Shown here: positions 25,215-60,624 of the stretch, in pieces
How positions within the stretch are numbered: the first letter of the stretch is position 1
Layout: every line of letters begins with the position of its first letter
From: Escherichia phage Jgk1
DNA length: 64,000 nucleotides
Sequence record: PV292302.1
Direction: 5' to 3' (one strand)
Notes under the pieces: generated by a model
The model's input: only the letters and a program-made list of their open reading frames with translations
Database searches by the model: none
What the model was told of the DNA's origin: nothing
Position numbers and translations under genes: made by a program

Positions 25215-25455
25215 TCTGGTAGGTGGCTCAGAAGCTACTGCTATTTGTGGTAGTGTTCATAATTCTGATGCTATTGCTTATCAGGATTCTGGACGTGTCG
25301 GCTCCATACATAGCCTTTATCATCACTGTCCTTATCCTATGGAAATGGAAATGCAGTGAAAAGTCCGGTGGTGACAAGCCGCCAGATTAATAACAAACCG
25401 AACCAGTGTGCAGGAATACTCTCCCCTGTGCACTGGTTCCAATAGGACGTTAACT

Positions 25456-29787: not shown

Positions 29788-29815
29788 AAAGCCCCTCTAA
29801 TGAGGGGCTTTTTTA
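29788..29815. terminator. bidirectional rho-independent terminator between convergent transcription units
   Basis: stem AAGCCCCTC/GAGGGGCTT with T-runs on both strands. Confidence 0.6.
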
Positions 29816-42685: not shown

Positions 42686-45340
42686 TTACGTATTCAGTGA
42701 TAAATCTAAGGTCATTTCAGAGAAGTTGGTAATCATATCCAGAGACATACCACCAATATCTGAACCAGTCATAGTAGTTCTGGATAAGAAACTATCGAGT
42801 GACTCTATAGATACAAACTGCATGGGGTCAATTACACCTACACCACCAGTACCAAACATCTCTTCATAACGATTGTTAACAGCCATCATATCAGAATTAT
42901 ACTGCTGCATAGTCTTCTCTGCCTGACGGATGATATCAGCAGTAGACGAATTAATGTACTGACTAATGCCGTTACCAACAGCAGAAGTAAGCTGCATGAT
43001 GTTTTGAGCATTCATCATATTGGCTGCCATAGTAGACATGGTTGCACCAGTAGATAAAGCAGTACCTACGTTCATTGCAACTACAGAGGCAATGGCTGCA
43101 ACAATAAAACCAATCTTATCACCAAAGAGCTTTGTAGAAACTTTCTGGATAATTGAGATTAGAACTATAGCAGCAATGGCATTAGCTATAGCCCCGACAA
43201 TAACAGCAGCTAAACCAACAAACCCAAGTGAAGCACCTACTGCACCATACGCACCGAGAATACCCACACCACCTGCACCAAAGGTAAAGATGGAAACAAT
43301 TACTGCCACTACGATAACAGCAATCTTAAAGGCACTTGTCTGATACCACTTCTCTTTTACTTTCTTATACGAGTTCATAATCAAGTAAGTACAAGCAGTG
43401 GACAACTGAGTACTATGAGTCAAAGACATAGAACGGAAGATGGAAGTATTCAACGGGATAATAAATCCAGATTCTTCAGCATCACCCATTGCCTCAGCTA
43501 CATCAGTATCTACAGACTTATTCTTATAAACACGATTCTTATGAGCCAGGCCAAGAATACGTAACTTGGTGTAGGTATTAGGTCCGGTCTGCCAGAGCAT
43601 CTCGAACTCTTGCATAGTGTTACTAGTTGTTGAAACGCTAATCTGCTTAGTAGTTGGGTCAGTACGAATGTTCTTGCGGGTAAGTGTTACATTACCTGCA
43701 TAACGGGTCTTAAGCTGACCCTGTTTGGCTCCAGCCCAACCTTGTCCAGAATGGGAAGTTTCAAATACATAATTCCATGAAATGGACATATCGTACTTGT
43801 ACTTCTTACTACTGCTTACCCTAAACGTCCGTGAAGGAATGGTAGGGAATTCTGGAAGAGGTGGTGGCAAGTCAGTTACTGAACCTCCCCCACTATGGGC
43901 ATTCCACCAGGCAACATAAGCATCAGCAGCAGCATTACCTGCATCAAATCCAGCAATAACTGCTTCCAGTGTTGGATACATTGGGTCAGGTGGGAAAGCA
44001 GCAGTAGCCTTATTAAAGAATCTGTAAATATATTCTTTAGCCGTATCTTCTGGTGTATTCAGAGAACAGCCAAATGAGGTGTAGATATACTGTATATCAC
44101 CAATCTTACTGTTCTTCTTAAGTTCAGTTACTACTTTAGAGAGCTTGCCACCAGTGGCTTTCTTTAAAGCACGGTTACATAAAGGCCAGACATCTGGGTC
44201 TGTTTCTACCCAGGTCTTATTATCACGAATAGGAATGAACGGATAGAATCGTTCATCAGCATCATCTGTATCAAACAAAGCATCCAGTACAGGGTTACCA
44301 CTACCCTGCTTATAGATGAGCATGTTAGGTTGCCCGGCAGCAGACATAATAGTGTCATTGGTTACTGACTGAGAAGTGTACTGAATCTTAACACTTTCGG
44401 TTGTAGTAGTAGTGACGGTAGTCTTAGTGACCCCACCACCAATATCTACAACGGTAGTATTGGACGTAGTGTTATTTACCTTGGTTCCAATTTTTTTATG
44501 AGTCATTACCCTGTTATCTACAACAATAGTTGTTGGGTCGATGTTAGTAGTAAAGCCTCGCTTGTATACCTTGATGTAAGAAGACCACGTATAAGTACTT
44601 GGCGTGTCTGTAGTAACAGTCTCAGAAGGACGTCCATCTGAGTAAGTGGATACAGCAACGACATGCTTATTAAGAGCAGTACTCTCAGGAGTAGTATCAT
44701 CTGATATCTTAGTCCACAAGAAAGTAGATGGCAGTTCAGCCTCAGTATCATATGTGTACAGGGGACCGACTACAGGTGGTTGGGAAGATGGCTCCTTATA
44801 GAATGTATAATCAGCATAGAGATACAAAGCACCCTGAACAAAGTTAGTAGGGGTGAATGTAATAGTGGAACCTCCCTGAGTGGATGTCATTGTGATGAGA
44901 TTAGTATCCTCATCAATATCAATGTCGAATGTCTCATTAACTCGTGTTGGGTAGTTCTGATAAATGTACTGGTCACACCATTCCTGAAAATCAGCAAAGT
45001 CAATTCTAGCTGCCTGCACATAGGTAGTCTCCCCGCTAGGGGGAGTAATCTGTGAAGCTACAACAGTAGGGTCAATGGCTGCCACTACCCCAAGGGAGCC
45101 AGCAGCAAGACCAATTACGCCATCGAAGTGGTTCTTACTCCAGGATGAGAACAGTCTCATACGGATACCAGGTCCACCCATGTAGCTACTGTTAATCAGG
45201 TCAGCCATATCAAACTGCCCCTGTAACATGGAACCAATAACAGTGGTCTTCATGTAGTTAGGGCGCTGGTTGATATCCCCTGCCAGATTATAGGCAGAGG
45301 ATGCTACGTAAATTTTAGTCTTACCACTGAACAATCCCAT
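42686..45340 (-). CDS. putative large virion / DNA-ejection protein with C-terminal hydrophobic helices
   Basis: 884-aa ORF; C-terminal third has several long hydrophobic Gly/Ala/Val/Ile-rich stretches. Confidence 0.45.
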   Translation of the reverse strand: MGLFSGKTKIYVASSAYNLAGDINQRPNYMKTTVIGSMLQGQFDMADLINSSYMGGPGIRMRLFSSWSKNHFDGVIGLAAGSLGVVAAIDPTVVASQITPPSGETTYVQAARIDFADFQEWCDQYIYQNYPTRVNETFDIDIDEDTNLITMTSTQGGSTITFTPTNFVQGALYLYADYTFYKEPSSQPPVVGPLYTYDTEAELPSTFLWTKISDDTTPESTALNKHVVAVSTYSDGRPSETVTTDTPSTYTWSSYIKVYKRGFTTNIDPTTIVVDNRVMTHKKIGTKVNNTTSNTTVVDIGGGVTKTTVTTTTTESVKIQYTSQSVTNDTIMSAAGQPNMLIYKQGSGNPVLDALFDTDDADERFYPFIPIRDNKTWVETDPDVWPLCNRALKKATGGKLSKVVTELKKNSKIGDIQYIYTSFGCSLNTPEDTAKEYIYRFFNKATAAFPPDPMYPTLEAVIAGFDAGNAAADAYVAWWNAHSGGGSVTDLPPPLPEFPTIPSRTFRVSSSKKYKYDMSISWNYVFETSHSGQGWAGAKQGQLKTRYAGNVTLTRKNIRTDPTTKQISVSTTSNTMQEFEMLWQTGPNTYTKLRILGLAHKNRVYKNKSVDTDVAEAMGDAEESGFIIPLNTSIFRSMSLTHSTQLSTACTYLIMNSYKKVKEKWYQTSAFKIAVIVVAVIVSIFTFGAGGVGILGAYGAVGASLGFVGLAAVIVGAIANAIAAIVLISIIQKVSTKLFGDKIGFIVAAIASVVAMNVGTALSTGATMSTMAANMMNAQNIMQLTSAVGNGISQYINSSTADIIRQAEKTMQQYNSDMMAVNNRYEEMFGTGGVGVIDPMQFVSIESLDSFLSRTTMTGSDIGGMSLDMITNFSEMTLDLSLNT

Positions 45341-45349
45341 ACTGGTTCC

Positions 45350-46183
45350 TTATAGGTTGTTGTTCAACTTGATGGTTTCCATAACATCATCAACCACGGA
45401 GTTGGTGAAGCTGTTAGGTGGGTTAAGACCTTCATCAATCGTTTTCTGAGTAATCCAAGCATCAGAATAAATCTTAGCCGCCTTGAGTTCAGAATCACGT
45501 TTGTAGGAAGTAATCTGCTGGGTATACAGTTCTTTCTGTTTACCAATAGAACCAGATACAGCAGCACCATCTGAACGGTTATCCAGAGTCTGTGCACGTT
45601 GTGCTTCAGTCTGTTCCTTCAGTAACTGAAGTTGCTGAGGCAACATACTGTTAACGTTAAACAGTGCAGCACAATAATTCTCAGACTCAGTAGAGAGCTT
45701 GAGCTTGGTAAGAGCATATTCACTTTTAGAAGTAAGAGCCTGGAACTTAGCCAGTACATACTGAGATTTAGCGGTAGCCAGTGCAACACGGGCAGTAACA
45801 GCTTGAATCTGTGCCATAGCAGCAGCCCAGTAAGCTTGGTCACGGCCTAACAGGTATTGGGTAGCATTACCCATACAAGCCTCTAAAGTAGCAATGTATG
45901 CCTTGGTGTACTCACCACCAGTAATACGTCCTTCTTTAAATTCTTGTTTAAGGTGTGCAGAAGCAGACTGCATCAAAGCATCAAACGTACCAGAGCCACC
46001 AACTACACGGGTAGTCAGGTCATCATTAGTAAGACGGGTTACCTCAGTAAAGATGGGAGAATTATCACCACCAGGGATATCCCACTCAGGACCGGACATA
46101 TCAATATCAGGTAAGGTAAAGTCCTCACCTTCAGTAAGAGCAGCCAACAATCGGTTAGCTTCTACCTCAGCACCACATGACAT
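45350..46183 (-). CDS. putative virion structural protein
   Basis: 277-aa ORF in the structural block. Confidence 0.4.
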
Positions 46184-46256
46184 AGTGTTATCCTCTTTAA
46201 AAAGAAACGGCTCACGGAGTTTACCCAGTGAGCCGTGATAAGCTTTAGCTTAACCG

Positions 46257-46892
46257 TTAGTCGTTCAGACTACCAGCAGCAATCTGTGCAGCAGCCAAAC
46301 GATTCAGTTCTTCTTGGGTCAACTGAGGCAGTACCTCAATCGAGAATTCACGAATCCAACCTTGCTCAATACGTGGTTGACCATTCTTACCTTTGAGAAC
46401 ACGGATGTTCTGGAACTTACGGTTCTTCAGGAACTCGTAGATGCAGTAAGGAATGTGGTAACCATCATCGGTAGCTTCACCAAATGGAACGAACTTACGA
46501 ACAGTACCCATGTACTCATTCGCTACGGTAATAATCTCACCCGGCAGGTCTTTCTTTTTAGGGTCGAGGTTCTGAATACGTACACGTACCAGCTTCAATT
46601 GTTCTTGTCGAATCTTCTGACCAAGGGTCATTTTCTTAACTGGTTCCGGGGTATCACCCAGTGGGTTAACAGTTTCTTCTACTGTTACTTCAGGCTCATC
46701 ACTTACCTGTGCAGCTTCGATTTTTTTACGAAGTGCTTCAACTCCAATGTTATTGGAGAATTGAATGTTCATCAACGTTGCACGTTGCTTGAGAACAGTC
46801 AGTTCATCCGGCATTGCAATATCGTTAACGGTATCTTCGTTGCCCTGAACGTCTACTTCTACGTCAGTGGTCGGTTTGTCGTTAATGCTCAT
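46257..46892 (-). CDS. hypothetical structural-module protein
   Basis: 211-aa ORF immediately downstream of the capsid gene. Confidence 0.4.
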   Translation of the reverse strand: MSINDKPTTDVEVDVQGNEDTVNDIAMPDELTVLKQRATLMNIQFSNNIGVEALRKKIEAAQVSDEPEVTVEETVNPLGDTPEPVKKMTLGQKIRQEQLKLVRVRIQNLDPKKKDLPGEIITVANEYMGTVRKFVPFGEATDDGYHIPYCIYEFLKNRKFQNIRVLKGKNGQPRIEQGWIREFSIEVLPQLTQEELNRLAAAQIAAGSLND

Positions 46893-46921
46893 GGTTATAA
46901 TTCCTGTGATTCGTTAATAAA

Positions 46922-46940
46922 GGGGGAGCTTTGCTCCCCC
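46922..46940 (-). terminator. terminator/attenuator hairpin downstream of the major capsid gene
   Basis: 7-bp stem GGGGGAG/CTCCCCC with T-rich flanks on both strands, 19 nt after the capsid stop. Confidence 0.45.
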
Positions 46941-46958
46941 ATTTTTTAATTCAGACTA

Positions 46959-48161
46959 TTACAGTGGAGCAACAGTCTTGATGATTGCCAGACGTTCTGG
47001 ACGCTTAACCAGGATACCGTAGTACCACTTGATTGAACTGAAGCCAGTCTCACCGTATGGGTCGTTACGGTCAGCGGTTTCTTTACCAGGCATCTTAGTC
47101 ATAACGGTAAACTTAACAGACTTACCATCGGTCTGGAAGCCGATAGAGGTAAAGGAATCGTCACCAACAACCAGCATTGGGAACACGTCGTAGTGCTCAG
47201 TACCACCAACGGAAGTAGTACGATAACCTGGGTTAGTAGTTACAGCAGCACCAGCACCTGCCCAATGCAGCATCTCAGGAACCTGGATGATACGGAACTT
47301 GTCGATGGAACCGACTTCACCGTTCATCAGAGTACCAGCATCAGCGTAGTGCTGAATCTCAATGAAAGCTTTGTTACCAAACAGGTCTTTCATTGCCTTC
47401 AGTTCTGGAACCAGTTCAGAACCTACATACATCACACGAGTACCACCGATGACTTTGGTGTCAATCAGACGGGAACCAGTGATGATAGTAGTCTGGGTTG
47501 GGGTACGGTTCTCAGTAAGAATCTGGTCAAGACGCATCAGGTTCTTATAAGAAACAACAGAAGGGGTAGAACCTTCACCAGTAATGGTAGCATCAGAAGT
47601 AGCAGCACCTGCATACAGAACAGTACCAGCAGCAGCCAGCAGGTCTTTTTGCAGAACAGCTTCGGTCAGTTGGACAGCACCGTTCATCAGTTCACGAGAC
47701 AGGTGTTCCATCAGGCCATCATCAGAATCGAAGTCCAGAGATTCCTGGGTGAATTCGTAGAAGAAGCCAAACTTGTGAATAGAACCTTCACGAGCCAGAC
47801 GAGTAAAACCAACACGGTTAACACGACCACCGTTCTCTGTCAGCAGAGGCAGCTTGGAAGTAATGTTACCAATGTCTTTACTTGAGCCATACAGGTTACC
47901 ATTAACGATGGTAGCACCGTTAGCATCAATACCCTGGTCGTTGATGTTCTTATCATCCAGCAGAGGAACATACTCGTAAACCTTAATGGTTTTACCGTAG
48001 TTCTTCGGCATGTTAGTTACAGATGCCAGAGGCATGAAATACTGGTCTTTACGAGACTGGATGATTGCTTTCTTCAACCAGAAGTAAGTATTCATCTGGT
48101 CAGAGCCAGCACCATCAATGCTGGATTTCTGGCCGTCAATCGGAGCGTTATAGTTCAACAT
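46959..48161 (-). CDS. major capsid protein (putative)
   Basis: 400-aa ORF between scaffold-like and portal genes, followed by a strong hairpin; assignment by size and synteny with N4 gp56. Confidence 0.6.
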
Positions 48162-48176
48162 AGTAATCGTTTCCTG

Positions 48177-49394
48177 TTAAAGTCCACCGGGACTCGGTAG
48201 TTTAGCGAAATCTTCATCACTCATAGCGAGTGGATTAACAATCGTAGCGGCTTTAGCTGGTGCAGCCCGACTAGGAGAAGCAGCACTTGCTCGCTCTGAG
48301 TTCGCCAGAGTTTGCTTAGGTTGTGCAACACGAGTCACAACTGGGGCTTTAACTTCTGGCACTGGTTCCGGTTGAACTTGTTTATTCAGGTGGTTGAATG
48401 CACCTTGTCGAGCAAGTAATTCACCAACCTGATTATAAACCTGAATAAACGGCAGTCCATTTGGAACTTGACCGAGCATACGCAGACGATTCACCTCATT
48501 CGTAATAATGTCGTAAATGCCATTTTCACGTTGGGTCTGAATGGTCTGAAGTAAACCACGGTTATTAAACAGAGCATCTTTACTGGCATCATCCCATGTC
48601 TGGCTGATTACACCTAAAGTAGCTTGTCCTTCTGGGGTAGACTTTAAGTCGTCCAATTCGGTTGCAAATGCTGCTTCAGTATCAGTAACACGGTGATTGC
48701 CTGCCTGGTACTTAATTTCATCTTCTGGATTAAAGTCCAGAGGGTCTGTACCAGAGTCTTTCAGCAACTTCTTAATGGCATCTGGATTCTTCTTATCTAA
48801 GTCAATCAGATAAGAAAGTTTGTCCTCATCCATTAAACCGTTGTTTTGTAGCATCAGCATCACCTTACGGTAAGGCTGTAATTCTTGCATCTTACGAGTG
48901 TAGTTAGCACCCATCTGCATCAGGCTAATAGCCTCCTCCGGTGAACGGGGAGTAATCATTTTGCCGTTAGCTTTAAAGGGAGCCATCACCTTCTCGTAAC
49001 CAGCTTTATAGTTGAAGTCAGCAGGCAGACCTTCAGACTGTTTGCCTTCTTCATTCTGTTCCTGGCCTGGTTCAGTAGTAGAAGGTTCAGCTTTAGTAAT
49101 CGGCTTACCGTTACTATCAACTTCATTGTTGACAACTTTATCATCAACTTTATCAGAAGTTAAAGTATTTGCTGCATCTTCTTCAGTAACAACAGGCTCA
49201 GGCTCTACTGGTTCAATAGGTTCTGGTTCTTCAACAGGTGGGACAACTTCCTCAGCAGGAGTCGTTACGCCGTTGGCTTCTGGGTTGTTCTGAGTATCTA
49301 CTACAGTTTCAGCAACTGGAGCAGACATATTCAGAATCTCATCATCCGACATTGCGAAAATGTCGGAAGCTGGTTTTTCAGCTTCCGTAGTCAT
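48177..49394 (-). CDS. putative scaffolding protein
   Basis: 405-aa acidic, Pro/Glu-rich protein encoded between portal and capsid genes. Confidence 0.4.
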   Translation of the reverse strand: MTTEAEKPASDIFAMSDDEILNMSAPVAETVVDTQNNPEANGVTTPAEEVVPPVEEPEPIEPVEPEPVVTEEDAANTLTSDKVDDKVVNNEVDSNGKPITKAEPSTTEPGQEQNEEGKQSEGLPADFNYKAGYEKVMAPFKANGKMITPRSPEEAISLMQMGANYTRKMQELQPYRKVMLMLQNNGLMDEDKLSYLIDLDKKNPDAIKKLLKDSGTDPLDFNPEDEIKYQAGNHRVTDTEAAFATELDDLKSTPEGQATLGVISQTWDDASKDALFNNRGLLQTIQTQRENGIYDIITNEVNRLRMLGQVPNGLPFIQVYNQVGELLARQGAFNHLNKQVQPEPVPEVKAPVVTRVAQPKQTLANSERASAASPSRAAPAKAATIVNPLAMSDEDFAKLPSPGGL

Positions 49395-54468: not shown

Positions 54469-56268
54469 TTAGCTAATCTGGTACAAGGTTGCTGAACCGT
54501 CATAGATGCACTTCCACAGCGTATGGTGATACTGTGGTATAGGATAATCTACGGAACCTTTAGGGATTAGGTTATTAGAAGCAAACTTAACAACCCCATC
54601 GGCTGTATTAGACGCTATCATTAAATCCCTACCATACGGGGAACCATACACATGAAAAATGCTGACAGCAGCTCCGGTAATTCGGAGATTTGCAGCAGGG
54701 TGCAACTTAGTGAGGTCAATATCTCCAGCAGCAGTAACATCAACAAAGAATGGCTTACCACCGTCAAAACCATTAACTGTAGCACCAGAATCCAGATAGA
54801 TGTTAACACGGGAATCAATAGGTATCTCATTACCTGAACAATGTGCACCACCTACAATCAGACCACCAGCGGTACGTCTTCCATTGGAATCGTTCTCATA
54901 GAACCCAAACTTATTATCTGTTACCGAACCATTAATCACTTGGATACCCCAGAGATTAGTGGAATCTACTGTAGCATCAATACCATAGGTGCAGTTAGTA
55001 ACCTTACCACCTTGAACAACCAACCCATAATTAGATGGGTCACAACGAATGAACTTAACCCCGTTAAAGTCAATGTCTGAACCAGATAGGTATGCAGGTT
55101 TGATAGTGCCTTCTGGAGCTAGGAATACATCCCCGGTAAAACTCATAACACTACCAGTACCAGTAATGAAATACGGTACATCCTTACGAGGAATCCCCAA
55201 CTTACTAGCCAGGTAAGCAACATCCGTAGGAATGAATACGTTGTTACTAAAGAACACCTCATGACTTGCGCCCAAATCAATAGGAGCCTTGGTATAGTAA
55301 AAACGGTCAGCTAGGGTGTTATCACCAACAGGTCTAGCAACCTCAAAGTGACAGTGATTAAAGAACACGAACCATGGGTTACCAAATTTAAGCATGTAGG
55401 GATTAAACTCAAAATGACAACCAGTGAAGTATACGTAGTTACTATCCTGAATCATGGTCACAGCAGGGTTAGTAACATTACCGCTTTGTAGGAAAGAACA
55501 GTTAGTAAAATAGGTATCCTGAATGTACCCAATTTCTAGTGCCTGGTTCGGGAAGAATTGTATGTTAACTCCCTCAACAATACCCATCCAACCAATACCA
55601 TTAAGATACAAACCCACATCACACTGACCATCAACCCCCCAAATAGCAAAATCACGTAAGGTAAGTCCAAAGCAGTAAGCCGAACCAGAATCAATAGATA
55701 ACATTCGACCAGTTGCTACATGGGAGTTAAATACTGTACCTCGTACAGGGGAAGGGGAATGTACAGAAGCTACAGTCCTCAAACCTTGAGCACCCTCACC
55801 ATACATGCACAGAGCGTAATCCACCTGAATAGATTTATTAATTTCATACTTACCAGATGGAGAAAATACAGCATAACCCACCTTAGCAGCATTGATTGCT
55901 GCCTGCGTACCTGCATAATCTTGGCTCTGAGTTAAGCTAGTTACAAATGGATATACCATTTGTGCAGCAGATAGGGTGCTAAACTTTTCACTTAATGGGT
56001 GTAGTTCACCATCCCCTACAGCACCGAAGTCCTTGATATTAATTACATCCGCCAGTTTAAGCTGGAGACTACGTTCAATTGATGCAGCCAATGGGGACAT
56101 ATGCCCAATGTTGGAAGTACCATACTTAGATGCCAGCGTTGCTTTATACTCAGCAAGTGAAGTTAGTGGTGGATACGGTGCAGGCAACAAATCAACAGTA
56201 ATGTTACCTGGTGAATAGGTTAACTTACCGTCACCGACTGTATTGATGTAAACGTTGGCCGGTAACAC
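54469..56268 (-). CDS. tailspike protein, C-terminal segment (pectate-lyase-like beta-helix), split off by a tandem duplication
   Basis: 599-aa ORF with GAVGDGELHPL...AINAAKVGYAVFSPSGKYEINKSIQV; its first about 330 aa are encoded by repeat copy 1. Confidence 0.5.
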   Translation of the reverse strand: MLPANVYINTVGDGKLTYSPGNITVDLLPAPYPPLTSLAEYKATLASKYGTSNIGHMSPLAASIERSLQLKLADVINIKDFGAVGDGELHPLSEKFSTLSAAQMVYPFVTSLTQSQDYAGTQAAINAAKVGYAVFSPSGKYEINKSIQVDYALCMYGEGAQGLRTVASVHSPSPVRGTVFNSHVATGRMLSIDSGSAYCFGLTLRDFAIWGVDGQCDVGLYLNGIGWMGIVEGVNIQFFPNQALEIGYIQDTYFTNCSFLQSGNVTNPAVTMIQDSNYVYFTGCHFEFNPYMLKFGNPWFVFFNHCHFEVARPVGDNTLADRFYYTKAPIDLGASHEVFFSNNVFIPTDVAYLASKLGIPRKDVPYFITGTGSVMSFTGDVFLAPEGTIKPAYLSGSDIDFNGVKFIRCDPSNYGLVVQGGKVTNCTYGIDATVDSTNLWGIQVINGSVTDNKFGFYENDSNGRRTAGGLIVGGAHCSGNEIPIDSRVNIYLDSGATVNGFDGGKPFFVDVTAAGDIDLTKLHPAANLRITGAAVSIFHVYGSPYGRDLMIASNTADGVVKFASNNLIPKGSVDYPIPQYHHTLWKCIYDGSATLYQIS

Positions 56269-56280
56269 AGGTAATCCATA
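55281..56280. repeat. tandem direct repeat, copy 1 (1000 bp)
   Basis: identical to 56281-57280; ORF-track ORFs 55720-55935 and 55976-56218 recur exactly at +1000. Confidence 0.9.
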
Positions 56281-58318
56281 TAGGAGCCTTGGTATAGTAA
56301 AAACGGTCAGCTAGGGTGTTATCACCAACAGGTCTAGCAACCTCAAAGTGACAGTGATTAAAGAACACGAACCATGGGTTACCAAATTTAAGCATGTAGG
56401 GATTAAACTCAAAATGACAACCAGTGAAGTATACGTAGTTACTATCCTGAATCATGGTCACAGCAGGGTTAGTAACATTACCGCTTTGTAGGAAAGAACA
56501 GTTAGTAAAATAGGTATCCTGAATGTACCCAATTTCTAGTGCCTGGTTCGGGAAGAATTGTATGTTAACTCCCTCAACAATACCCATCCAACCAATACCA
56601 TTAAGATACAAACCCACATCACACTGACCATCAACCCCCCAAATAGCAAAATCACGTAAGGTAAGTCCAAAGCAGTAAGCCGAACCAGAATCAATAGATA
56701 ACATTCGACCAGTTGCTACATGGGAGTTAAATACTGTACCTCGTACAGGGGAAGGGGAATGTACAGAAGCTACAGTCCTCAAACCTTGAGCACCCTCACC
56801 ATACATGCACAGAGCGTAATCCACCTGAATAGATTTATTAATTTCATACTTACCAGATGGAGAAAATACAGCATAACCCACCTTAGCAGCATTGATTGCT
56901 GCCTGCGTACCTGCATAATCTTGGCTCTGAGTTAAGCTAGTTACAAATGGATATACCATTTGTGCAGCAGATAGGGTGCTAAACTTTTCACTTAATGGGT
57001 GTAGTTCACCATCCCCTACAGCACCGAAGTCCTTGATATTAATTACATCCGCCAGTTTAAGCTGGAGACTACGTTCAATTGATGCAGCCAATGGGGACAT
57101 ATGCCCAATGTTGGAAGTACCATACTTAGATGCCAGCGTTGCTTTATACTCAGCAAGTGAAGTTAGTGGTGGATACGGTGCAGGCAACAAATCAACAGTA
57201 ATGTTACCTGGTGAATAGGTTAACTTACCGTCACCGACTGTATTGATGTAAACGTTGGCCGGTAACACAGGTAATCCATAAGACTTCTCAGCAACCACAT
57301 CGTAGACAACTTTCATACCATTAAGATACTGAGTAGTGTTAGAACTAAGAATTACTTCAGAATCCTTAACATTAACTGAGCGTGCTATTTCCTGGATGGT
57401 ACGGTCAGACATGATGAAAGTAATAGACTCACCACCAACCTGCACAACCAATTGGTCATTGGTAGCCAATGGCTCCGTCAGTAAAATACGCTGATTAGGG
57501 GCATCTACTGTATAAGATTGGGCAGCCAAACCTTGTACATATCTCAGTCCATTCTTAAAAATAGCCGGAATAGACTGGAAGGTATAAGGAATAGCAATAA
57601 CCTGCTCCCCACCTACAGCATAACCCCCATTGTATAGCCAGTTAACCTGAACCCAATCCGTAATATTAGGGTTGCTTGGTACTGCTGGAGTACCAGCCAG
57701 GAGCAGGATAACCTCATCATCAGCTACTAACGGAGTATCCAAGGTAACAGTCAGAGTAGTAGCATCATAAGTAAAACCTAACGTGTTAATGTAGGTTTCG
57801 TGGTTCTTGATGATGTAAGCAACACCAACAGTTTGAGCGGGAACAGGTATAGTAGTTTCGCCCCCAATAGCCGAACCATTGTTATAGATATAAGGAATGT
57901 AAGAGGAACCATTACCAGAGCCAATGTTTTCCTCAAATGTTCCCGGTACATTAACCAGTAACCATGAACCAGTGGCAGAGGTGTCGTCTGGGATGATGCC
58001 AGTAGTATCGTCAGCTACATACAGATAATCTTTTACTTGCAGCTTACCTGTATTGTCCTTGTCATACAGTCGAGCATAGGTAGCCTTAACAGTTAAAGCT
58101 TTCAACTCTGCTTCTGACTTAACACCCAAAACCATACCGTATTGGTTCAGGAAGTCGTAGATAGGTTTCAGATTACCAAGATTGCAGTAAACTGTACGAA
58201 CCACGTTATATGCGTTGCCAATCATTTTATCGACCAATGGGTCGTTAGAAGTATTGTCGCAATATGGGCTAGTCCAGTCGTTATTTGCATCGAAAGGAGC
58301 ATGTCCTGTCATTTCCAA
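56231..58318 (-). CDS. tailspike protein, N-terminal segment plus one copy of the duplicated beta-helix block, frame-terminated after the repeat junction
   Basis: 695-aa ORF; the final 16 codons after the 56280/56281 junction are out-of-frame sequence. Confidence 0.5.
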   Translation of the reverse strand: MEMTGHAPFDANNDWTSPYCDNTSNDPLVDKMIGNAYNVVRTVYCNLGNLKPIYDFLNQYGMVLGVKSEAELKALTVKATYARLYDKDNTGKLQVKDYLYVADDTTGIIPDDTSATGSWLLVNVPGTFEENIGSGNGSSYIPYIYNNGSAIGGETTIPVPAQTVGVAYIIKNHETYINTLGFTYDATTLTVTLDTPLVADDEVILLLAGTPAVPSNPNITDWVQVNWLYNGGYAVGGEQVIAIPYTFQSIPAIFKNGLRYVQGLAAQSYTVDAPNQRILLTEPLATNDQLVVQVGGESITFIMSDRTIQEIARSVNVKDSEVILSSNTTQYLNGMKVVYDVVAEKSYGLPVLPANVYINTVGDGKLTYSPGNITVDLLPAPYPPLTSLAEYKATLASKYGTSNIGHMSPLAASIERSLQLKLADVINIKDFGAVGDGELHPLSEKFSTLSAAQMVYPFVTSLTQSQDYAGTQAAINAAKVGYAVFSPSGKYEINKSIQVDYALCMYGEGAQGLRTVASVHSPSPVRGTVFNSHVATGRMLSIDSGSAYCFGLTLRDFAIWGVDGQCDVGLYLNGIGWMGIVEGVNIQFFPNQALEIGYIQDTYFTNCSFLQSGNVTNPAVTMIQDSNYVYFTGCHFEFNPYMLKFGNPWFVFFNHCHFEVARPVGDNTLADRFYYTKAPIWITCVTGQRLHQYSR
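56281..57280. repeat. tandem direct repeat, copy 2 (1000 bp)
   Basis: identical to 55281-56280; flanks diverge at 55271-55280 versus 56271-56280. Confidence 0.9.
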
Positions 58319-59019: not shown

Positions 59020-60624
59020 TCACACAATGTATGAACGTAGTGGGTTAACAGAGTCTTCCTCATCATCATCCCACATCGGGTCACCTTTAGCATCGACCAT
59101 AGTCATACCTGCCTGAGGTTTCCACGGGTTGAGGTAGCCCAACATTGAAATGGTATCAATGCAGTCATCCTTGCCCTTAATGCCGTTGATGGTGGCTAAC
59201 TTAATCTGCCCCATGAATAATCCCATGATAGTAGTGGTACGCATCTCTTCTGGGAAATACATCTTCCCTGCTTTGAACCAGGGAACTACCAAGTTAAATC
59301 GGGACAGCTTAGATGTTACCGGACGAATACCAGGCTGACCACCCTGAGATGATGCAAAGTTAAAGAATACATTACGATTAATCATCTCTTTCTGTAAAAG
59401 AGAGATGAAACCACCTTGCTGTCCTGTAACCTCAACCCCAACGTTTTGTGGTTGGTACTCTTGAACCAGACGAAACAGTTCATCAAAGTTCTTATCCATA
59501 AGCTGGCGAGCAGCCACACCGTCAACCCAGAACCAATCTCCATTAGAACTGTAAGCCCAAACCGAAATAACACTGTAGTCGCTAGTCTGTTTTTCTGAGG
59601 TAGCGAAGTCAGTAGTAATGTAATAGTTGTAGCAGGTCTTCATACGAAGTAACTGCTGACGGCTATACCACTTAATCTCCGAGTCCTGAACCAGTCTCTC
59701 ATCCTCGGAGCTAATACGAAGCATAAGTTCCTGGTAGAAACCAGCTAGCTTCCCAGTTTTAGCTGCCATATCATACTGGTCTTTGATGTACTGATAAGAG
59801 AAACGGTCATCCCATGCACCCTGGAATTCTTCTAGGGAACAAGGAAACTTCTCACATACAGGCCATACGTTGACATCCCATGCACCGGATTCAACTGCTT
59901 CAATGAGGATATCCTCCTTATTAAAGGGAGTACCGTTGAATATTACTTTACGACGTGTAGGGTCAAGTGCGTGGTTCACACCCTTATAGACTGTATCCTT
60001 AATGGCTTCCATGCTTGTCTTAGAGCGAGCATCATCATCACTAACTAAGTCATCAAGAATGCAGAGTGTTGGACGCTTACCAAAAATCTTCGTACCACGA
60101 AGACCAGTCTTAGCACCAAACATCTTAACACCCAGTCGATGTCCTTCAGCATTAATGAACTCTAAGTAGTTATCCGTAAAGGTAGCTTTAGGAATCCATT
60201 GCTGAAGAAACTCACTATTGTTGTAACGGAATTCAATGTTTTTACGTGCAGACTTAACACCGTTATCCATTGAGTCAGACACGTAAATCATACCCTCAAC
60301 CTTACCAAGCCCAGGTAAGTGACCGAACACTGCCAGGAATAAAGTGAAGTACTCCATAAACAGAGTTGTCTTTGCTGCACCACGGAAGCAAAGGTTAGCA
60401 ATGTACTGGTGTGGTGATGTTACCTTATCCAGCATCTTTAAATGCACAGGAGGAGTCTTGTTCGACTCCCCTTCCTTACCATTAACCAGCTTAATAAAGT
60501 TGGCGAAGGTAAGTGCAAATGTGCTTGGCAAGTAGTTGGGTGTGTTAAGTACCGAGTAGTCTACCTGGTCAAGCCATTCATCTAGCTCTTGCTTCTTTAA
60601 TTCAGACATCAGTAATGTCCTCAT
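59020..60624 (-). CDS. terminase large subunit (putative)
   Basis: 534-aa ORF with P-loop-like CFRGAAKTT near N-terminus and acidic nuclease-like C-terminal region; first large gene of the late block. Confidence 0.6.
   Translation of the reverse strand: MRTLLMSELKKQELDEWLDQVDYSVLNTPNYLPSTFALTFANFIKLVNGKEGESNKTPPVHLKMLDKVTSPHQYIANLCFRGAAKTTLFMEYFTLFLAVFGHLPGLGKVEGMIYVSDSMDNGVKSARKNIEFRYNNSEFLQQWIPKATFTDNYLEFINAEGHRLGVKMFGAKTGLRGTKIFGKRPTLCILDDLVSDDDARSKTSMEAIKDTVYKGVNHALDPTRRKVIFNGTPFNKEDILIEAVESGAWDVNVWPVCEKFPCSLEEFQGAWDDRFSYQYIKDQYDMAAKTGKLAGFYQELMLRISSEDERLVQDSEIKWYSRQQLLRMKTCYNYYITTDFATSEKQTSDYSVISVWAYSSNGDWFWVDGVAARQLMDKNFDELFRLVQEYQPQNVGVEVTGQQGGFISLLQKEMINRNVFFNFASSQGGQPGIRPVTSKLSRFNLVVPWFKAGKMYFPEEMRTTTIMGLFMGQIKLATINGIKGKDDCIDTISMLGYLNPWKPQAGMTMVDAKGDPMWDDDEEDSVNPLRSYIV

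Follow-up and report, generated by a model that had tools for sequence, protein, structure and literature searches.

The intergenic hairpin that separates the gp55- and gp54-like genes of Escherichia phage Jgk1 is very probably a rho-independent terminator, acting on the late (minus) strand between the head-gene block and the block that encodes the tail tube, tail plug and ejection proteins. It lies within the 64,000-nt stretch of the phage genome that was analyzed here (sequence record PV292302.1; hereafter the window), where, together with its closing A-U pair, it occupies positions 46207-46236. The element combines a GC-rich stem-loop with an abutting U-tract in an intergenic, sense-oriented position after a stop codon, which are the features of a rho-independent terminator. 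An earlier note on this DNA had described the hairpin as lacking a T-run; since a T-run is present, the simplest reading is the intrinsic terminator, the very one that the note had excluded. Judged by its sequence, it is an ordinary terminator that is conserved in its clade, and one that is already known in that the orthologous site has been predicted in published records. At the hairpin, a transcript boundary probably separates the head module from the tail and ejection module, and the value of recognizing the element lies mainly in correct annotation.

Late gene map and the gp55-gp54 junction

The window derives from an N4-like podovirus (Schitoviridae) with ~78% DNA identity to the G7C/ECBP1/PhAPEC5 group. 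A 1.7-kb query around the hairpin matched 61 phage records, also at ~78% DNA identity, most of them N4-like coliphages and Shigella phages of the Enquatrovirinae (Moo19, ECBP1, Bp4, PhAPEC5, PhAPEC7 and the G7C group). The gene map agrees with the N4 order: early and middle genes occupy the plus strand up to ~29.8 kb and are followed by a leftward late block, the first gene of which encodes the virion RNA polymerase (3447 aa). The window also encodes an N4SSB homologue (phrog_743, E = 3e-83) that adjoins a Sak4-like gene, a gene order shared with LUZ7.

Upstream of the hairpin, the head-gene block comprises the portal, gp58, gp57, the major capsid gene gp56 and gp55; downstream lie the genes for the gp54 tail tube, the gp53 plug, the ejection proteins gp52 and gp51, and the giant virion RNA polymerase (Table 1). 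In N4, gp54 forms a dodecameric tail tube present in 12 copies per virion, gp53 serves as tail plug, and the ejection proteins include gp52, gp51 and gp50 (PMC13434306). The earlier note had placed the hairpin between two late structural genes. This description suits gp54, the N4 tail tube (PMC13434306), better than gp55, which belongs to a PHROG of conserved proteins that have no assigned function and is absent from the N4 virion proteins modelled in the same study.

Table 1. Positions of the genes around the junction and of the parts of the putative terminator in the window.
Feature	Position	Strand	Basis
N4 gp55 homologue (upstream gene), 211 aa	46257..46892	-	ORF list; phrog_2130, E = 1e-76; gp55-like annotation of relatives
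N4 gp54 homologue (downstream gene), tail-tube protein, 277 aa	45350..46183	-	ORF list; phrog_2050 virion structural protein, E = 4e-111
Major head protein, N4 gp56 in relatives' annotation	46959-48161		PHROG match
N4 gp53 by relatives' annotation; conserved protein, function-unknown PHROG	42686-45340		PHROG match
5' arm of stem, RNA 5'-ACGGCUCAC-3'; A 46236 pairs with 46207 (closing A-U)	46228..46236	-	Sequence, RNA fold
Apical part UGGGUAAACUCC: 1x1 mismatch, 3-bp inner helix (GGG/CUC, one G-U) and UAAA tetraloop	46216..46227	-	MFE and centroid structures
3' arm of stem, RNA 5'-GUGAGCCGU-3'; the T-run starts at its last base	46207..46215	-	Sequence, RNA fold
T-run TTTCTTTTT (U-tract) abutting the stem; expected transcript release site	46199..46207	-	Sequence, terminator scans; within the annotated PhAPEC5 terminator
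gp54 leader, 15 nt, with Shine-Dalgarno AAGAGGA	46184..46198	-	Sequence

The window has several other features of note. At 29788-29812, in the interval that separates the last gene on the plus strand from the end of the virion RNA polymerase gene, hairpins stand face to face with T-runs on both strands (AAAGCCCCTC...GAGGGGCTTT), and from its sequence this site is likely a bidirectional terminator where rightward and leftward transcription converge. Among sigma-70-like sites of the late strand, the best match (TGGACT-16-TATAAT, 10/12) is found at 48432-48459 (-), inside the gp57-like gene and ~270 nt before the start of the capsid gene; on its consensus match, it could be a late promoter. The window further contains a perfect 1000-bp tandem duplication (55280-56279 and 56280-57279, 100% identical), which breaks up what would otherwise be a single minus-strand ORF of 952 aa and leaves two overlapping ones, of 599 and 695 aa. 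Removal of one copy restores a single frame, and the duplication looks like an artefact of assembly or construction, or a defective genome.

The hairpin occupies a 73-nt minus-strand gap that runs from the gp55 stop codon (TAA, 46259-46257) to the gp54 start codon (ATG, 46183-46181). Its core is an inverted repeat of 8 perfectly matched bp, CGGCTCAC/GTGAGCCG, the arms of which (46208-46215 and 46228-46235) are 12 nt apart. Read along the minus strand, the order is ACGGCTCAC-TGGGTAAACTCC-GTGAGCCGT-TTCTTTTT, and the stem abuts TTTCTTTTT. The hairpin begins 20 nt past the gp55 stop codon and the T-run ends 15 nt ahead of the gp54 ATG, both on the strand of the two genes. Six G-C pairs are contained in the 9-bp stem, and eight of the nine positions of the T-run are T. 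The sequence that follows the hairpin on the plus strand, TGATAAGC, holds no T-run, and the element is therefore unidirectional.

The earlier note was right that two 8-bp arms lie 12 nt apart between a minus-strand stop at 46257 and a start at 46183. Its coordinates (46207-46233) are off by 1-2 bases, so that the 5' arm lacks its first two bases, and its statement that no T-run follows proved mistaken, as the minus-strand 3' arm enters TTTCTTTTT (46207-46199) directly. The T-run was probably missed because the plus strand displays it as AAAAAGAAA ahead of the hairpin. A 12-nt loop correctly describes the distance between the perfect arms, although further closure by GGG/CUC around a UAAA tetraloop is predicted.

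Folded on its own as RNA, the hairpin reaches -18.2 kcal/mol (9-bp stem, 1x1 mismatch, 3-bp inner stem and UAAA loop); among relatives, the inner 3-bp helix is kept only in part. For the surrounding 71-nt region, the minimum free energy (MFE) structure has -24.2 kcal/mol and the centroid -22.5 kcal/mol (z = -3.9), and none of 200 shuffles was as stable. The same fold bears on a possible translational control of gp54, by which readthrough RNA would pair the U-tract UUUCUUUUU with the Shine-Dalgarno sequence AAAGAGGA and damp translation of the tail-tube protein. The 71-nt MFE structure does pair UUCUUU with AAGAGG, and a C within the T-run is common among relatives. The helix is missing from the centroid, however, and gains only ~1.7 kcal/mol (the difference between the two energies above); moreover, a purine-rich Shine-Dalgarno sequence complements any T-run with no need for selection, and the GC-rich hairpin would be left unaccounted for. 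We consider this reading very unlikely.

The motif GAACCA(A/T)GAGGAA around the gp54 ribosome-binding site is common to the G7C group, N4, L016-20, L021, phiAxp-3, HN01 and RG-2014, and it lies just upstream of the gp54 ATG in loci L004, L015, L016, L021, L045, L046 and L050. A GAACCA-like sequence precedes gp55 in Moo19 and Gutmeister, and the GAACCA part has been lost in the window (46184-46198) and in L003. This motif might be a translation-initiation context. At the other end of the gap, GT(A/T)TAAGCT is kept across the clade immediately after the gp55 stop (46244-46256 in the window, minus strand) and has no conserved structure. We rejected it as the -10 element of a late promoter, the key A2 or T6 being missing in several lineages; a transcript starting there would also meet the terminator at once.

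Terminator-like sites in the window and chance expectation

Perfect 8-bp inverted repeats with loops of 3-12 nt occur 51 times in the window, against 11.7 +/- 3.8 expected from first-order Markov simulations, so that a bare 8-bp inverted repeat is weak evidence. We scanned both strands for terminators, defined as a single hairpin with canonical closure, interior mismatches being allowed, and a T-rich tail within 2 nt. At dG <= -18, the window holds five hairpin-plus-T-run sites, compared with 0, 1, 1 and 1 in four whole-window dinucleotide shuffles (both strands). The site at 46207-46236 is the only one of the five that is both intergenic and in sense orientation within the late block, and it is the strongest sense, intergenic hairpin-plus-T-run of that block. 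Another terminator scan did not list it, only because that scan limited loops to 3-8 nt and required uninterrupted stems. The remaining four sites are located at 489 (+), 25397 (-), 28230 (+) and 61972 (+); that at 25397 (-) is intergenic, yet antisense to the surrounding plus-strand genes.

These counts also bear on the idea that the repeat is a functionless product of chance. About 12 perfect 8-bp inverted repeats would be expected in 64 kb by chance, and the repeat could be one of these. Against this stand the intergenic sense position, the adjacent T-run, the folding z-score of the region (-3.9), the scarcity of such sites in shuffled sequence and conservation in many lineages, and we give chance almost no credence.

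Conservation of the hairpin among schitoviruses

The comparison set comprised 16 named schitoviruses together with 39 IMG/VR loci, each encoding a relative of gp55 (protein identity 38-91%). In the GenBank records of PhAPEC5 and PhAPEC7, the orthologous 36 nt are already marked as "terminator" on the basis of an ARNold prediction. The N4 reference record carries no terminator feature here, and the N4 sequence has the same hairpin followed by the tail TTTTCTTTT. Within the clade of the window, a hairpin and T-run after the gp55 stop were found in L003, Moo19, the G7C group, N4, L011-13 and L016-20, and the same arrangement is seen in Achromobacter phage phiAxp-3 and L021. Quite different stems, again with a T-run and at the same junction, occur in the Delftia phage RG-2014, the Stenotrophomonas phage Philippe and the Erwinia phages Gutmeister and phiEaP8, as well as in IMG/VR loci L019/34, L022-24, L025, L026/27 and L032. 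The Burkholderia phage HN01 has a stable hairpin at the junction, with a clear T-run absent.

The gp55- and gp54-like genes of the Pseudomonas phages LUZ7 and PA26, the Vibrio phage K477 and the Pectobacterium phage CB3 (L042, L057, L054 and L056, respectively) are 2-11 nt apart, and in these four phages an equivalent hairpin and T-run follow the gp54-like gene. From these sequences, the second predicted terminator is shifted by one gene between schitovirus subfamilies. In OLIVR3 and Pollock, the gp55-gp54 gap is too short for a hairpin and T-run; neither was a hairpin and T-run found in the 44-nt gap of Sulfitobacter phage phiCB2047-B or in the IMG/VR relatives L028-30, L035-37 and L040-41.

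Jgk1 has another terminator-like hairpin (GGGGGAGC-AAA-GCTCCCCC, -15.7 kcal/mol) at 46922-46940, after the capsid stop and ahead of the gp55 start, with T-rich sequence following it on both strands. Almost all schitoviruses compared, N4 and LUZ7 among them, have a GGGGAGG...CCTCCCC-like hairpin after the capsid gene, with a clear T-run absent in a few lineages. Mapping of schitovirus transcription can thus take account of a near-universal hairpin after the capsid gene and of a second one placed after gp55 or gp54 according to subfamily.

The gaps of all 16 lineages (16/16) fold better than their own shuffles, with z-scores from -1.9 to -6.1. The stem hardly varies within the alignable clade: eight of the 12 pairs never vary, and one pair changes on both sides (U-A, U-G, C-G). 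Covariation measures did not exceed the shuffle control in this clade, where near-invariance of the stem leaves formal covariation support weak. In an arm-swap test across lineages, 59 of 60 positions paired with their own partners, compared with 37 +/- 5 after swapping (0 of 20000 permutations); the arms had been preselected as pairing, and the test is partly circular because the arms are defined by their pairing. The whole-gap shuffle z-scores given above for each lineage were added as a fairer control than the arm swap. As far as sequence comparison can carry it, the sound argument lies in the recurrence of a stable hairpin at a single junction across unlike sequences, nearly always with a T-run.

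The stem of the window's clade itself, ACGGCTCAC/GTGAGCCGT, is near-invariant from E. coli phages to Achromobacter phages, while the flanking proteins are ~57-60% identical. This degree of constraint would also suit a DNA palindrome to which a regulatory, packaging or replication protein binds, or a hairpin promoter used by the virion RNA polymerase, and the early promoters of N4 are indeed DNA hairpins (PMC4496689). Distant lineages keep the hairpin and T-run with entirely different stems, however, which points to structure rather than sequence as the conserved property. The N4 early hairpin promoters have stems of 5-7 bp with 3-nt loops, and precede early genes at the left end of the genome, on the other strand. 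The Jgk1 element differs in having a 9-bp stem with 12 nt between its arms, in lying in the late region and on the late strand, and in being followed by a T-run and a ribosome-binding site.

The wider distribution of the stem argues in the same direction. A degenerate pattern of the stem followed by TTT matched 68 IMG/VR loci, of which 18 are N4-like and share the loop and both flanks. Some 50 non-N4 viral contigs have the same stem with unrelated loops and flanks and mostly T-rich tails; by sequence, they look like independent terminators with a GC-rich stem of a common type. We rejected the idea of a dispersed or mobile repeat, given the single copy of the stem in the window and the unrelated loops and flanks in these ~50 contigs. 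Since the stem occurs once in the window and serves in apparently ordinary terminators of ~50 unrelated viral contigs, we regard a role at the DNA level as highly improbable.

Conservation at the junction would also suit an RNA stability or processing element that acts without termination, either as an endonuclease site or as an exonuclease block within a polycistronic late mRNA, and that shifts the ratio of the upstream to the downstream segment. A stable stem-loop in an intercistronic gap is suited to such a role, and 3' stem-loops are barriers to PNPase and RNase II. On the other hand, a T-run directly follows the hairpin in nearly all lineages that have the hairpin, and a pure stability element has no need of one. 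Typical RNase III substrates are longer than the 9+3-bp interrupted stem seen here, and the Rfam 15 covariance models gave no match at E <= 1 on either strand of 45900-47100. Stabilisation would in any case arise as a by-product of termination, with no separate mechanism, and this reading appears to us quite unlikely. In the earlier note, the hairpin was suggested to tune expression of the downstream virion proteins as an RNA processing or stability element. The tuning component survives, as a leaky terminator does just that, and so does stabilisation by a 3' stem-loop, whereas a processing site as such found no support, given the short stem and the negative Rfam search.

A proposed leaky terminator in the late block and its closest counterparts

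N4 late genes are transcribed leftward by the host sigma-70 RNA polymerase, which is recruited by N4SSB (PMC4496689). By homology with N4, the host RNA polymerase presumably transcribes this region in Jgk1 as well, and we infer both that it terminates at the hairpin and that it does so only in part. Signals composed of a hairpin and a U-tract are recognised by the host RNA polymerase. We propose that the host sigma-70 RNA polymerase would run leftward through gp55, and that the nascent RNA, 20 nt past the stop codon, would fold into the GC-rich 9+3-bp hairpin; a site at this distance from the stop codon is probably outside the footprint of the terminating ribosome. The weak rU-dA hybrid over UUUCUUUUU would then free the transcript ahead of the gp54 ribosome-binding site. 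Some polymerases would read through into the downstream genes, which would then be transcribed less than the capsid genes, and at the terminated 3' ends the stem-loop should shield the head-gene mRNA from 3' exonucleases.

The hairpin looks strong, which counts to some degree against this reading, since the virion RNA polymerase gene (10 kb) and the genes near it lie downstream and need enough transcripts. The T-run and the gp54 ATG are only 15 nt apart, which leaves no room for a promoter there, and the sequence scan listed no promoter-like site in 46184-46198. With no promoter after the T-run, gp54 to gp50 most likely depend on readthrough, and the terminator is most likely leaky. Promoters upstream of the hairpin would still meet the terminator, and promoters may lie within the downstream genes. 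Capsid subunits number several hundred per virion, and a leaky terminator fits the contrast between these and the 12 copies of gp54 together with the gp53 plug. It thereby offers a simple account of how several hundred capsid subunits and a dozen tail-tube subunits could come out of one leftward transcription unit served by the host RNA polymerase.

Data from LUZ7 also fit a leaky terminator. In that phage, 33 late start sites are scattered over the genome, more than 60% of the mapped termination sites show substantial readthrough, and leaky terminators shape the late operons; the inefficient terminators of T7 are mentioned in the same paper (PMC9163698). The main text of that ONT-cappable-seq study does not mention the genes relevant here (PMC9163698), and a literature search for transcript 3' ends of Jgk1, N4 or the G7C group found none. 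Readthrough at some LUZ7 terminators depends on the infection stage (PMC9163698), which is compatible with a further possibility, namely that the Jgk1 element is a regulated attenuator. Readthrough would then be changed during infection by a phage factor or by the N4SSB-bound host polymerase, thus timing or dosing the tail-tube, plug, ejection and virion RNA polymerase genes against the capsid genes. We think this unlikely, with some small chance of being correct; if it were true, the shift of the terminator between the gp55|gp54 and gp54|gp53 junctions would represent a lineage-specific retuning of virion stoichiometry.

The closest counterparts of the putative terminator are the sites predicted in PhAPEC5 (KF192075, 52998-53033) and PhAPEC7 (KF562340, 53034-53069), which lie in the orthologous gap between gp55- and gp54-like genes. 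They agree with Jgk1 in strand relative to the genes, and both the 5' arm and the T-run TTTCTTTTT are identical; one base of the 3' arm (A to G, turning a U-A into a U-G pair) and two bases of the loop differ. Jgk1 belongs to another species than these two phages (~78% DNA identity), and the terminator calls are computational in all of them. LUZ7 shares with Jgk1 its family and a late programme that relies on the host RNA polymerase, and stepwise readthrough at hairpin terminators sets the levels of its structural genes, as determined by ONT-cappable-seq (PMC9163698). Two predicted hairpin-plus-T-run sites of LUZ7 follow the capsid gene (at about 59919-59977) and the gp54-like gene (at about 58251-58303). 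Unlike in Jgk1, the LUZ7 gp55- and gp54-like genes are 10 nt apart with no terminator at the junction, and the second hairpin is found one gene downstream.

A functional parallel is offered by T-phi of phage T7, a partial terminator downstream of the major capsid gene 10 that acts on the single-subunit T7 RNA polymerase. As would be the case for the Jgk1 element, a partial stop after abundant head genes lowers the output of later, low-copy virion genes. The two differ in the enzyme concerned, which in Jgk1 would be the multisubunit polymerase of the host, and in position: T-phi directly follows the capsid gene, a place that in Jgk1 is taken by the other hairpin, at 46922-46940.
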